A program made the translations under genes and the position numbers. The notes under the pieces were generated by a model. That model saw nothing but the letters and a program-made list of their open reading frames with translations. It was not told where the DNA came from and searched no databases. DNA of 18,106 nt from a virus, in UHGV virus genome UHGV-0176695, one strand, 5' to 3'. The number at the start of each line of letters is the position of its first letter. Position 1 is the first letter of the stretch. Shown one piece after another: positions 12,560 to 18,106 of the stretch.

Positions 12560-12582
12560 AAAAAAACCCGCTTGGCGGCGGG
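12560..12582 (-). terminator. Intrinsic terminator about 50 nt downstream of the late promoter (tR'-like)
   Basis: Minus-strand hairpin CCCGC-CGCCAA-GCGGG (plus 12567-12582) followed by seven U (plus 12560-12566). Confidence 0.6.
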
Positions 12583-12636
12583 TTTTGCTTACTTTGCCAT
12601 CGCGTACAAAATCGGCAAAATATCAGATTTGCATGA

Positions 12637-12665
12637 AATATATGCTTTTTAATCTACTTTTGCAA
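12637..12665 (-). promoter_or_regulatory. Sigma70-type promoter just downstream of the Q-like gene (candidate late promoter pR')
   Basis: On the minus strand: -35 TTGCAA (plus 12660-12665), 17-nt spacer, -10 TATATT (plus 12637-12642). The -35 overlaps the last codons of the Q-like ORF. Confidence 0.45.
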
Positions 12666-13338
12666 TACTTTGCTTTGAAAATGCCGCCTTTTGTTCCAAA
12701 CGCGTTCTCATTACCAACAATAAAGCCTCACTATCCAGCTGGTGGAAAATGTGTTTCATTGCAACCCAGTGACCAGTAAATGTTTTGGACCAGTTTTTAG
12801 TTGTCACTCCCGCCAGTAATGCCAGATCCTGGTATTCATAACCTTCCCCGCCAAAAAGTTCTGCTTTTACTGCCTGCGCCGCCAGCCAGATTAATTTTTT
12901 CAGGCGTTCCCGTGTTTTCTCTGCAATTTTCCTGTTGCCAGAATGAGCCTTAAACTCTTCCCATGCCCAGCGGGTTATGGTGACCTGATACTCCCAGCAA
13001 ATATTTCCGCTGTAACACCACAACAACCAGGTTTTATGAGGTTCTTCAAGAGACAGAACAGCCCGTCGCCATGAGGATGTCGAAAACTCAACCTGACTTA
13101 CCAGAGGAATTGACGTCCCCTTCGCCAGCGATTGTTTCCCCGGGATTGGTGGATTATCCCGCGTGATCATTTTTCCAGTCACTTCATCGCGGTACCGGAT
13201 TTTTTTACGCCTGTAACGCCCTGTATCGAACATGGCATTCTCCTGCCAGGCTTCAAGCTGACCTTTTGTTGCCCCACTCAAATCGGCGGTGGCGATAATG
13301 AGCTGCTCACGAACAAACTGTAAATACTGGTTATTCAT
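12649..13338 (-). CDS. Putative late-gene antitermination protein (Q-like)
   Basis: 229-aa ORF; ATG at 13338 overlaps the RusA stop (ATGA). Sits directly downstream of rusA and upstream of a promoter-terminator pair, the classical lambdoid Q position. Assigned by synteny and architecture, not by recognised sequence motifs. Confidence 0.45.
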   Translation of the reverse strand: MNNQYLQFVREQLIIATADLSGATKGQLEAWQENAMFDTGRYRRKKIRYRDEVTGKMITRDNPPIPGKQSLAKGTSIPLVSQVEFSTSSWRRAVLSLEEPHKTWLLWCYSGNICWEYQVTITRWAWEEFKAHSGNRKIAEKTRERLKKLIWLAAQAVKAELFGGEGYEYQDLALLAGVTTKNWSKTFTGHWVAMKHIFHQLDSEALLLVMRTRLEQKAAFSKQSIAKVD

Positions 13339-15124: not shown

Positions 15125-15196
15125 GTTAAGCGCGGGTGCGTTGAGGATGCCGACACATCAGAGGTGGCGGGAGATTACTCTCCCGCCTGGTCACTC

Positions 15197-15352
15197 TTAC
15201 TTCTCAGATTCGTAGTCCACGAAGACAACAACCTCCGTCTGGCCGGTTCGGATTCGTACCTCGCAGAGGTCTTTCCTCGTTACCAGTGCCGTCACTATGA
15301 CGGTTAAACAGATGACGATCAGGGCGATTAACATCGCCTTTTGCTGCTTCAT
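15197..15352 (-). CDS. hok: Hok/Gef-family type I toxin (small membrane-depolarising peptide)
   Basis: 51-aa ORF translated by hand: MKQQKAMLIALIVICLTVIVTALVTRKDLCEVRIRTGQTEVVVFVDYESEK. ATG at 15352 with an AAGGAG ribosome-binding site 9 nt upstream. Near-identical to E. coli Hok proteins from memory. It is missing from the ORF track because it is under 60 aa. Confidence 0.85.
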   Translation of the reverse strand: MKQQKAMLIALIVICLTVIVTALVTRKDLCEVRIRTGQTEVVVFVDYESEK

Positions 15353-15560
15353 AGCCTGCTTCTCCTTGACCTTTCGGTCCGTAAGAGGCTAACCTATGTT
15401 TGTGTGGCATAGATTGGGCCTCAGATTAATGTTAAGCGTCCTGCAAGACGCGTAATGTTAACTGGGGCTTTTCTCTGTCTGCCTTACAGTGGCATGCCCG
15501 AGGCAGACAGCCTCAAGCACCCGCAGCAATCTTACCGACACCGATAAGAAAACGCTATTT
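15353..15560. promoter_or_regulatory. Structured hok leader with a mok-equivalent frame and candidate Sok antisense region
   Basis: The frame upstream of and in-frame with hok reads PLTDRKVKEKQAM, matching the Mok N-terminal region from memory, but is closed by TAG three codons further upstream. Plus-strand candidate antisense promoter: TTGACC at 15366-15371 and TAACCT at 15390-15395. Hairpins at 15436-15451 and a 9-bp inverted repeat CTGTCTGCC/GGCAGACAG at 15475-15510. Confidence 0.35.
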
Positions 15561-15807
15561 TTTATTGCCAGCACCATCTATCCAGGCTAATTTATCTGCG
15601 TCAGAACGGCGCAATGCGCTCGCCTGAGATACGTTTACTTGCCATGGTAACAACAGGTAACGGCAATTGTTGTTTCTGTTTTGTTTCCTTCAAAAACCCC
15701 GGACCATCAATCCGGGGTTTTTGTTTGTTATCCCCAGCGGCAAATCGAATACACCACCAGCGCCACCGCCATTGCAATTCCTACCGTTGTGAACGCTTCA
15801 GACCAGG

Positions 15808-16632
15808 TCATCGCAAAACATCCTCTGCACTTATCAGTTCGTTCCGCTTCAGGTAGTCCATCGCCTTATCCGGCAATTTACAGTCCGGCTTCACTTTCTT
15901 CAGTTGACTGACCAATTGCTTAACCAGCATGGTTAATTCGTCAGTCTGTTTGCCTGGTACTGGTGGATTGTCGGTTGTACCATGACTGGCAGTACAGTTG
16001 GCACTTCCTCCCTTCTCCTCCCGCAGCGGTTCAGGCAACGCATCCAGTGAAGCTTTCACAAACCACGCTGCCTGTACTATAACGCCATGAATCCAGCGCA
16101 AATCAGCATCACGATCTTTCTTTTTCATCTTCTCGCCACTTAAAGCCTGGCTTATGTGGCTGCGTACCAGGTCTTCATGTAACTCCTTCGCATCCTCAAT
16201 AGTGAAACCACCAGGCAGGCGAGCCGGGGTTACATGAGGGTTGCCTTCCCTCTGACTCTGAAGCATGGCGGCGCGGCAGGCGTTCCAGCCATCAACATAA
16301 TCAAACGTATTGCTATCGTCTGGCTCGATTTCAGCCGGCACTATCAGCGCAGGCTGGACGGCAACATTGGCAAAGGCTGCGCGCAACCCGGTTTTAATTT
16401 CTTCGATTTCATCAGAGCCAAGCGATGAGTCAGAAAGCGCATGGTGAAATGCGTAAGCCATGTCGTCGTTGATTTCTACAGGCACACTATCAGCCTTGCG
16501 GCGCTCCTGTAGCTCGCGCAGAGCCGCTGCAACATAATGACTATTGTGCTGGTCAGCCCACAGAATGAGCCGAATCAACGTTGCATTTGAAACGTATTCG
16601 TCTGTTAGTTTGCTATTGGTAAAAGTGGTCAT
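15808..16632 (-). CDS. Hypothetical protein (274 aa)
   Basis: ATG at 16632 overlaps the HNH gene stop (ATGA); long ORF on the operon strand; acidic. No family recognised. Confidence 0.6.
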   Translation of the reverse strand: MTTFTNSKLTDEYVSNATLIRLILWADQHNSHYVAAALRELQERRKADSVPVEINDDMAYAFHHALSDSSLGSDEIEEIKTGLRAAFANVAVQPALIVPAEIEPDDSNTFDYVDGWNACRAAMLQSQREGNPHVTPARLPGGFTIEDAKELHEDLVRSHISQALSGEKMKKKDRDADLRWIHGVIVQAAWFVKASLDALPEPLREEKGGSANCTASHGTTDNPPVPGKQTDELTMLVKQLVSQLKKVKPDCKLPDKAMDYLKRNELISAEDVLR

Positions 16633-16994
16633 GCCGTAGCCCCTTCTTGATATTTTTCAAACCAGAACACAACCGGGTCAGATTTCATTTCAACCAATCC
16701 CATACGAACCAGCGCTTTGCCTTTCCCGGACGCAAGGAATTCACGACGACCATCACTGATAATTCGCCGATAATCTTCCAGGCTACTGCAATGCTTGTGC
16801 AGATTGCATGGGTGGCATGCCGGAACCATGTTGGATATATCGTCACGATCCTGGTGAAGCATATTTCCAGCAAAACGAATGACCGGTTTTACGTGGTCTG
16901 CGTGCCACTTTTCGCCAAGTTCGCAGCCGCAATAAGCACAGCGACCGCCGAACTTCATGCGTAATTCTGCACGTTGTTTTTTCGTCAGTGCCAT
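16629..16994 (-). CDS. HNH endonuclease
   Basis: Track ORF trimmed to ATG 16994 (AAGGA ribosome-binding site). Canonical HNH layout: CAYCG...HADHVKP...PACHPCNLHK. Confidence 0.7.
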   Translation of the reverse strand: MALTKKQRAELRMKFGGRCAYCGCELGEKWHADHVKPVIRFAGNMLHQDRDDISNMVPACHPCNLHKHCSSLEDYRRIISDGRREFLASGKGKALVRMGLVEMKSDPVVFWFEKYQEGATA

Positions 16995-16995
16995 T

Positions 16996-17214
16996 TCAGT
17001 TTTCCTTATATGGATTAATTTTATTGTGCAGTGTATTGAACGACGCCCATACCACGTCGTTATACAATTCAATAAATAGCTCAATTATTTTTCCGATTCC
17101 CCATACCAGAATTAAAGGGGATATCGGTATCATCAACACGATAAACAGAATGAGAAACAGGAGTTCTATTACCCTGCTTTTTCGCGGATAAATTTTTTTA
17201 AATAATGTAGGCAT
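16996..17214 (-). CDS. Small membrane protein (72 aa)
   Basis: Track ORF 16996..17340 trimmed to ATG 17214 behind an AAGGAG ribosome-binding site with a 7-nt spacer; MPTLFKKIYPRKSRVIELLFLILFIVLMIPISPLILVWGIG... is strongly hydrophobic; the gene is AT-rich compared with its flanks. Confidence 0.45.
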   Translation of the reverse strand: MPTLFKKIYPRKSRVIELLFLILFIVLMIPISPLILVWGIGKIIELFIELYNDVVWASFNTLHNKINPYKEN

Positions 17215-17215
17215 A

Positions 17216-17410
17216 TCACTCTCCTTTAGTGCGGAAGTGGTTTTTCCAGCGGTTTTGTGCCGCGCTTCTGTTTCGCCAGACACCGTAAAAACGAATAGAG
17301 GACCACTCCCTAAAACCAAGATATCTATAGCGAACAACAAGTCGATTTGAGATACGAATAAGTTGCCCTGGCTTTGCTATCAGCAGTCTTGCCTTACGGT
17401 TTTTCATCAT
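17216..17410 (-). CDS. Small basic protein (64 aa), hypothetical
   Basis: Tandem ATGs at 17410/17407 behind an AGGAG ribosome-binding site; stop TGA adjoins the next ATG (TGATATG). Rich in Arg/Lys with several rare Arg codons. Confidence 0.35.
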   Translation of the reverse strand: MMKNRKARLLIAKPGQLIRISNRLVVRYRYLGFREWSSIRFYGVWRNRSAAQNRWKNHFRTKGE

Positions 17411-17577
17411 TTTGCTCTCCTGCGTTTCTTTGCTTCGCGTCGTGCAGCAGCAATACCGGTATGGCGCTTTGGTGCCGGGATGATGTTGTCAGCCATCAGG
17501 ATATTCGGCTTTGCAATTAGCGCAGAAGCCCAAAAACGAGTCGGGTACGGTAACAGGCCGATACATGCCACACGCAT
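17407..17577 (-). CDS. Small basic protein (56 aa), hypothetical; not in the ORF track
   Basis: ATG at 17577 overlaps the stop of the 159-aa gene (TAATG) and follows a strong AAAGGAGGTGA ribosome-binding site; its stop overlaps the next ATG (ATGA). Hand translation MRVACIGLLPYPTRFWASALIAKPNILMADNIIPAPKRHTGIAAARREAKKRRRAK. Confidence 0.3.
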   Translation of the reverse strand: MRVACIGLLPYPTRFWASALIAKPNILMADNIIPAPKRHTGIAAARREAKKRRRAK

Positions 17578-18056
17578 TACTCACCTCCTTTGGCGTCAAT
17601 ATTTACAGCCTGGCAAGCCTCGTTGAGCACCCAGTCAACCGCGTCTTTCCATGCTCCGGTTTCAGCTGGCGGATTCTCACACTTTACCTGTTCATAGAAG
17701 CGTACAGCCTTAACCAGTCCGTCCGGCACTGCCTGTACCATCTGCGCCCTGACCCACGCCACCCGCGACGGGTTCATATGGCACATGTTGTTCCTTTTTT
17801 CTTCATGGTAATGCCCATTACTCTCGTTAAATGGCAACACCTCATACAGCCCGGCACTTCTGAAATCAGCGTGTAATTGTTCCAGTGCCGCTTCGCTGGA
17901 GGTACCGATTGATGTGAGATAATCGAAAAGATTGGCGCATAAACCATAATTTCGAGAAAACACCCCACCTGGTTTCGCCCCATTACTCAGCCACAAATCA
18001 TAAGCAATATAAAACCCGTAAAGCTGTTGTCTGATATTTTCTTTGATGTCTTGCAT
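17577..18056 (-). CDS. Hypothetical phage protein (159 aa)
   Basis: ATG at 18056 with a GGTGA ribosome-binding site; overlaps the stop of the upstream partial gene (TAATG). No family recognised. Confidence 0.6.
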   Translation of the reverse strand: MQDIKENIRQQLYGFYIAYDLWLSNGAKPGGVFSRNYGLCANLFDYLTSIGTSSEAALEQLHADFRSAGLYEVLPFNESNGHYHEEKRNNMCHMNPSRVAWVRAQMVQAVPDGLVKAVRFYEQVKCENPPAETGAWKDAVDWVLNEACQAVNIDAKGGE

Positions 18057-18106
18057 TATTTATCACCGCCCTTTAGGGCGGCCTCCTGATGTTCTGAGGG
18101 TGCAGA
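18056..18106 (-). CDS. Partial CDS (3' end only; gene begins beyond the window end)
   Basis: Frame open from the window edge to TAA at 18058..18056 (...SAPSEHQEAALKGGDK*), overlapping the next ATG. Confidence 0.3.
   Translation of the reverse strand, partial: SAPSEHQEAALKGGDK

Follow-up and report, generated by a model that had tools for sequence, protein, structure and literature searches.

The viral genome UHGV-0176695 was analysed over a stretch of 18,106 nucleotides (hereafter the window), in which a promoter and an intrinsic terminator directly follow the gene of a 229-residue protein, and the question raised by this locus is what such a pair controls. An earlier note, made from the letters alone, had read it as a late promoter and terminator in the layout of lambda pR'/tR', where the antiterminator Q lets RNA polymerase pass downstream terminators. 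In all likelihood, the module is the Q82-type pR'/tR' late antitermination switch of a phage-82-type lambdoid E. coli prophage. A Q-dependent late promoter/terminator pair would thus remain the right description, but the closest model is phage 82 pR' and not lambda, because the Q stop codon lies in the promoter spacer, a pause element occupies +6..+17 and the terminator ends at about 70 instead of 194 nucleotides. The evidence consists of the positions of the elements, their selective conservation, a strict linkage to Q82-family genes and co-oriented late genes, all of which were observed here. A module of this kind is already known, its mechanism is textbook knowledge and the prophage type is very common.

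The protein encoded by the intact gene upstream can be assigned to Q on its own sequence. A homology search against the known Q families, which had been suggested as a check in the earlier note, led to a known family, Q82, with PF06323 as the sole Pfam match (E 4.2e-88, positions 1-217 of the 220-position profile). Yin et al. (PMC9388147) name PF06323 as the Q82 family; it and two further Q families serve equivalent functions but share no sequence similarity. Alignment of the protein over all 229 residues gives 75.5% identity to Q of phage 82 (X92588), which has been studied by experiment, and 73.4% to Q of phage 434, and E. coli proteins already named 'antiterminator' are 100% identical to the protein of the window. 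It does not belong to the lambda Q family (PF03589), and hhalign against lambda Q returned a probability of 0.1, in agreement with the previous impression that the sequence is not lambda-Q-like. Judged by this similarity, the Q assignment stands independently of the promoter. The promoter had been called upon to support an assignment that was right, but this support is not needed.

Promoter, pause element and terminator

All elements of the module lie on the minus strand, which is the coding strand of every gene in the window (Table 1). The two hexamers with their 17-nucleotide spacing had already been seen and match the consensus at 9 of 12 positions (4 of 6 in -35 and 5 of 6 in -10, with optimal spacing). 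The spacer is a candidate for the Q-binding element (QBE), as it is correctly placed between -35 and -10, holds several invariant positions and is retained in a relocated copy of the module in the Salmonella prophage Gifsy-1.

Table 1. Coordinates of the module, the Q gene and the first downstream reading frame in the window
Feature	Position	Strand	Basis or remark
Q antiterminator gene, 229 residues, Q82 family	13338-12649	-	Pfam PF06323, identity to phage 82 Q
-35 hexamer TTGCAA of the late promoter (pR'-type)	12665-12660	-	promoter scan
Spacer, 17 nucleotides, AAGTAGATTAAAAAGCA	12659-12643	-	expected QBE position; holds the Q stop codon
Q stop codon TAA, inside the promoter spacer	12651-12649	-	
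-10 hexamer TATATT	12642-12637	-	promoter scan
Predicted transcription start, first A of AAAT, +/- ~3 nucleotides	12630	-	7 nucleotides past -10
Predicted sigma70-dependent pause element, TG +6/+7, TATTTT +9..+14, GCC +15..+17	12625-12614	-	likeness to 82 pR' positions
Predicted pause, +25/+26	12606/12605	-	
Leader hairpin 1, UAUUUUGCC paired with GGCAAAGUA, +9..+41	12622-12590	-	folding
Intrinsic terminator (tR'-type), 9-bp stem, 6-nucleotide loop, then T7	12586-12560	-	folding, terminator scan
T7 run of the terminator	12566-12560	-	
First open reading frame past the terminator, 65 residues, TrmB-like helix-turn-helix	12436-12239	-	Pfam TrmB weak (E 0.0019); phrog_331 E 3.5e-37; phiP27 homology

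The most diagnostic part of the module is the -10-like pause element, which was overlooked in the earlier note although promoter and terminator were both seen. In phage 82 pR', the pause element is -10-like with an extended -10 and is followed by GCC at +15..+17 and then by an AT-rich stretch, and the polymerase pauses at +25/+26 with U at +25 (PMC5001585). In the window, the start was set at A12630 because GCC then falls at +15..+17 and U at +25, as for 82 pR'; with this start, GATTTTG occupies +18..+24 and A follows at +26. The window agrees with 82 pR' at every described position, as judged from published positions and the phage 434 copy, since the phage 82 record X92588 ends at the Q stop codon.

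A further promoter-like site on the plus strand (TTGCCA-16-CAAAAT, 12594-12621) points toward Q. It was treated as a probable by-product, because its letters are those of the pause element and the 3' arm of hairpin 1, read as reverse complements.

The terminator fits its previous description. It was expected about 50 nucleotides past the promoter, and 50 nucleotides indeed separate -10 from the stem; the interval then given, 12560-12665, just reaches the end of the T-run with its lower bound. The hairpin (AAAACCCGC-CGCCAA-GCGGGTTTT, 12586-12563) has a GC core, in which CCCGC (12582-12578) pairs with GCGGG (12571-12567), and an A4/U4 extension. Its energy is -12.4 to -13.0 kcal/mol, it is followed by T7 and it is also present in the centroid fold of the leader. 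With the stem starting at +45 and the T-run ending at +71, a leader RNA of about 70-72 nucleotides is predicted. Terminator-like sites are enriched in the window (35 vs 19.0 +/- 5.4 in shuffles). A reading of this hairpin as a plus-strand terminator was rejected, as the T-tract is poor (GCTTACTTTG) and no convergent gene is found there.

Between pause element and terminator lies leader hairpin 1, the 5' arm of which is the pause element itself. It folds with -9.6 kcal/mol in the window and with -9 to -16 kcal/mol in relatives of the GCC class, and its arms occur as GCC/GGC, UGCCA/UGGCA and GUCG/CGAC among relatives, with double changes of the inner stem in one of them. A counterpart is present in the Rfam isrJ consensus. 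The hairpin is weak in the GTCG class of relatives and missing from the short forms 434, L007 and phiES15, and covariation was not significant (74.5% of cells paired vs 73.9% in shuffles, with the score reached by 45 of 500 shuffles). Thus, the hairpin is present but selection on it is unproven; it could aid RNA stability or correct folding of the terminator.

By analogy, pausing, Q loading and read-through would proceed as in phage 82, and the short terminated RNA of the lysogen would correspond to IsrJ of Gifsy-1. RNA polymerase with sigma70 would start constitutively at the promoter overlapping the 3' end of Q (near 12630), and sigma region 2 would then re-bind TGaTATTTT at +6..+14 of the non-template strand, so that the complex scrunches and pauses at about +25/+26. 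Without Q, the polymerase would escape and terminate at 12586-12560, releasing a leader RNA of about 70 nucleotides. Upon induction, Q encoded upstream would bind its DNA site in the spacer and load onto the paused complex with the help of NusA. Travelling with the polymerase, it would allow read-through of this and later terminators and thereby transcription of the methyltransferase, tRNAs, cargo reading frame, lysis and head genes.

Likeness to phages 82 and 434 (OL657226) is seen in several features. They share with the window the Q family PF06323, a promoter overlapping the 3' end of Q, -35 TTGCAA, the 17-nucleotide spacer, TATAYT, a start in an A-run, TGnTAT at +6..+11, a pause predicted at +25 and a terminator within about 70 nucleotides. 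The phage 434 copy is 81% identical to the window from -35 to +17, but carries TATGTT-GTA instead of TATTTT-GCC. Its terminator follows directly and ends at about +46, whereas the window has the extra leader hairpin (+9..+41), and the downstream genes of these phages are different.

With lambda pR'/tR' (6S RNA), the module has the logic in common, that is a constitutive promoter by Q, a QBE in the spacer, a sigma70-dependent pause, an early intrinsic terminator and processive read-through. The lambda pause, however, lies at +16/+17 and comes from a -10-like element at +1..+6, and the lambda leader is 194 nucleotides long compared with about 70 in the window. We take lambda pR' to start at 44588, which places that promoter about 78 nucleotides beyond the end of Q (44509). 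Lambda Q itself belongs to PF03589 and has no detectable sequence similarity to Q of the window.

A sequence relation of the Q82-family protein to solved structures was not found by phmmer and profile search of PDB sequences, and the family is without a solved structure in the PDB copy searched. An AlphaFold2 model of Q from 33 sequences was only moderate (mean predicted local distance difference test score 62.9; residues 90-220 at about 70-87). Foldseek ranked lambda Q first for this model (7ubn_Q, E 0.11), while profile comparison gave no sequence similarity. With moderate confidence, the Q82 family is predicted to share a core fold with lambda Q, which is a lead and not a result.

Conservation and linkage in relatives

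The unit was compared with 13 chromosomal loci encoding Q proteins of 58-93% identity (from Escherichia, Shigella, Citrobacter, Klebsiella, Raoultella, Buttiauxella and others), with 80 viral contigs and with the annotated phage relatives 434, 689R5, Gifsy-1, CobraSix, ZC-S1_prp, ST11-VIM1phi8.1, PhiR47_2 and phiES15. A common unit of TTGCAA, about 17 nucleotides, TATATT and then tcRTGYAAATYTGRTAT was found in the relatives, the exceptions being two contigs that break off at the stop codon of Q; the phiES15 copy is diverged (TTGAAA, CAGAAT). Invariant columns of an 18-sequence alignment are TTGCA, several spacer positions, A at -10 position 2, AAT at +2..+4 and GATA at +7..+10, and at least 90% of the relatives retain T at -10 position 6.

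Conservation is selective, as seen from the mean pairwise identity across 20 sequences. The -35 hexamer (0.98), the -10 hexamer (0.87), +1..+8 (0.88) and +9..+17 (0.81) are all better conserved than the coding DNA of Q (0.61-0.72), whereas identity is much lower past +18, with 0.44 for +18..+44, 0.49 for the terminator (+45..+75) and 0.26 past the terminator. In most relatives, a terminator ends 45-73 nucleotides from the start; one ends at +111 instead, and the stems of a few are weak or decayed. These terminators are of several unrelated sequence types, so that the function is kept and the sequence replaced.

Linkage to Q was assessed by searching IMG/VR with the DNA motif only, from -10 to the pause element, which gave 120 loci, 118 of them with enough upstream DNA. 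A Q82-family gene, 43-91% identical to Q of the window, was found upstream on the same strand in 118/118 usable viral contigs. The promoter abuts Q in 105 of these loci and is displaced by 130-1070 nucleotides in the other 13. One displaced locus is that of Gifsy-1, with the module about 840 nucleotides past antQ and on the far side of STM2616. Between -35 and +17, spacer included, its identity to the window is still 79%, although the spacer does not encode the C-terminus of Q there. This suggests that something other than coding keeps the spacer conserved, as a QBE would.

In annotated relatives, lysis genes follow the module at 0.3-2 kb. Among 5426 complete E. coli genomes, 1112 carry the promoter-to-terminator unit (at least 80% of its length), a single genome having as many as four copies, and only the Q gene is annotated there.

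IsrJ and alternative readings

An experimental anchor comes from the Gifsy-1 copy. The Rfam family isrJ (RF01393) matches the Gifsy-1 module (L016) from just past -10 to the terminator with 100 bits, and its gathering score is also passed by the modules of L009, L011, L098 and L100 (57-100 bits, L016 included). IsrJ is a 74-nucleotide RNA that was mapped in Salmonella lysogens and has its own promoter when placed on a plasmid (PMC2330248), and a transcriptomic survey described it as 'highly transcribed in all conditions'. On sequence grounds, the Salmonella small RNA IsrJ is the leader of a Q82-type late promoter, and thus the short terminated transcript expected in lysogens, seen in an orthologue of the module of the window. 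A description of IsrJ as a late-promoter leader was not found in the IsrJ literature examined; Sy et al. give that role to IsrK.

In Gifsy-1 (L016; 1185-1383 and 2034-2108), isrK was observed to lie inside a c4/a1b1-type antisense module directly past antQ, with Rfam scores of 69 bits for C4 RNA and 48 bits for c4-a1b1, and isrJ to be the leader of the late promoter.

The IsrJ locus is an orthologue of the promoter-to-terminator unit of the window in a Q82-type prophage; it also has the TGATAT element, and its leader of about 74 nucleotides likewise forms two hairpins. It differs in the sequences of hairpin and terminator, and the unit is parted from Q by the isrK-orf45-anrP insert. The RNA of the window (12562-12633, minus strand) stays below the isrJ gathering score with 22.1 vs 37 bits. 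Membership in RF01393 was rejected, as similarly weak matches were obtained to isrK, to the Phe, Trp and Leu leaders and to RNAI; because these unrelated leader families score equally weakly, the structural match to isrJ/isrK is generic. The proposed link of the module to isrJ is based on DNA homology and synteny and not on the Rfam score.

Several points weigh against the antitermination switch. The promoter had been called near-consensus, which is generous, since 23 sites as good were found in the window compared with 17.7 +/- 4.3 in shuffles by promoter scan, and the hexamers alone are not above chance; the evidence that the pair is real is homology and conservation and not the consensus match. 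Conservation of the spacer is partly confounded by coding for the last residues of Q. A likeness of the QBE to that of phage 82 is presumed, pR' having been compared by positions alone, and all activities of this copy (pausing, Q loading, read-through) we infer by analogy. Moreover, the 5' end of Rfam isrJ and of reported IsrJ lies 3 nucleotides upstream of the base equivalent to the predicted start, and IsrJ levels were reported to be HilA-dependent (PMC2330248), unlike those from a simple constitutive pR'.

It might alternatively be argued that the unit is mainly a small-RNA gene, giving in lysogens a trans-acting, Hfq-type regulator of about 70 nucleotides like IsrJ or StxS. Such a role would explain the conservation and would be compatible with antitermination alongside. 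IsrJ, the Gifsy-1 orthologue, has been reported to affect invasion and effector translocation (PMC2330248), and StxS of Stx phages demonstrates that a by-product of pR'-tR' can be a regulatory small RNA. Like the leader considered here, StxS is a short RNA arising from late-promoter antitermination in lysogens, but it has no sequence relation to the window and derives from a 258-nucleotide leader that RNase E processes. The predicted leader RNA is also small-RNA-like in shape, with two hairpins and a U-tail, and the module is present in the large number of E. coli genomes given above.

What is conserved, however, is the DNA from -35 to +17 with its promoter, pause element and QBE position. Identity is low in the body of the RNA (0.44-0.49), where unrelated sequences take the place of the hairpins. 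The generic isrJ match below threshold, the non-significant covariation of hairpin 1 and the linkage to a Q82 gene in every usable locus likewise speak against a gene that is mainly a small-RNA gene, which is therefore considered unlikely. Equally doubtful is that the leader belongs to a large, diverged family of IsrJ-like regulatory RNAs made constitutively from Q82-type prophages; if true, such RNAs would come from prophages in about one fifth of complete E. coli genomes.

Even less probable is that the palindromic TTGCAA is in addition part of an antisense promoter of the paQ type on the plus strand, activated by CII. Its CII box (TTGCAATACTTTGC, 12660-12673, plus strand) would direct an RNA back into Q and damp late expression during lysogenisation. 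The motif TTGC-N6-TTGC occurs once in the whole window, exactly there and overlapping -35, and the phage 434 record labels the equivalent site as CII site and -35 of paQ, but this annotation is itself a consensus prediction. About 0.55 occurrences are expected by chance in the window, half of the box is supplied by the -35 palindrome, and the box lies inside the Q coding sequence and is lost in L009, L011 and Gifsy-1. On the plus strand, the box is not followed by a plausible -10. The annotated reading frames of the window include no cII, although those at 15156-18106 were not searched and absence is thus not established.

Downstream genes and mosaic joint

The late genes controlled by the proposed Q82-type switch are arranged as stated in the earlier note, with methyltransferase, tRNAs, cargo, lysis and head genes separated by terminator-like sites. 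They comprise, all on the minus strand, the TrmB-like reading frame, an N6/N4 methyltransferase, tRNA-Thr, tRNA-Gly, a 229-residue cargo reading frame (phrog_5091), two holins, an endolysin and terminase, and the stretch from 12252 to 7717 holds at least eight more terminator-like sites. The module confirms the late operon annotation of the prophage and places the predicted late start at about 12630 and the predicted stop in lysogens at about 12560; little else turns on it.

The terminator is a mosaic joint, because the homology to PPompW and 689R5 extends to about 12555 and that to the Stx2e phage phiP27 sets in at about 12585. The mosaic block common to window and phiP27 starts with the 65-residue TrmB-like frame. 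In phiP27 (L102, 2490-2700), the same terminator, a Chi site, the TrmB-like gene, the methyltransferase and the tRNAs precede stx2e, and in the window the slot equivalent to stx2e is occupied by the phrog_5091 frame. Methyltransferase, tRNAs and cargo frame thus share the Q-controlled slot that holds stx2e in phiP27, so that the cargo frame is expected to be expressed mainly on induction.

It is very improbable that the hairpin does no more than end the early rightward operon, as the 3' terminator of the Q message, and mark a recombination joint, next to promoter hexamers that match by chance: the promoter-like score, the joint itself and the occurrence of the same terminator after a different gene in phiP27 would fit, but -35, -10 and pause element are more conserved than coding DNA, the full structure is kept when moved away from Q in Gifsy-1 and 12 other contigs, IsrJ is transcribed from this promoter in the Gifsy-1 orthologue and the biochemistry of phage 82 pR' supports promoter activity.

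Some minor observations were made in the surrounding DNA. Chi (GCTGGTGG) occurs 16 times in the 18.1 kb window (5 on the plus and 11 on the minus strand) compared with about 0.55 expected at random. One copy lies at 12527-12520 (minus strand), about 30 nucleotides past the T-run, and is kept in 689R5, L003, L090 and phiP27, the downstream DNA of which is otherwise diverged.

The cargo reading frame (10391-9702, minus strand) was called from GTG and is without a Pfam match, and its phrog_5091 match begins at residue 56. Terminator-like hairpins lie at 10358-10339 and 10310-10293, within the first 100 nucleotides of the call. Probably, the true start is located downstream of the call and the gene is preceded by a double terminator.

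Finally, the sok antitoxin RNA of Rfam (RF01794) matched at 15350-15522 (minus strand) with 109 bits, which points to a hok/sok-type toxin-antitoxin locus in the early region, where the DUF968 and RusA genes lie downstream of it.
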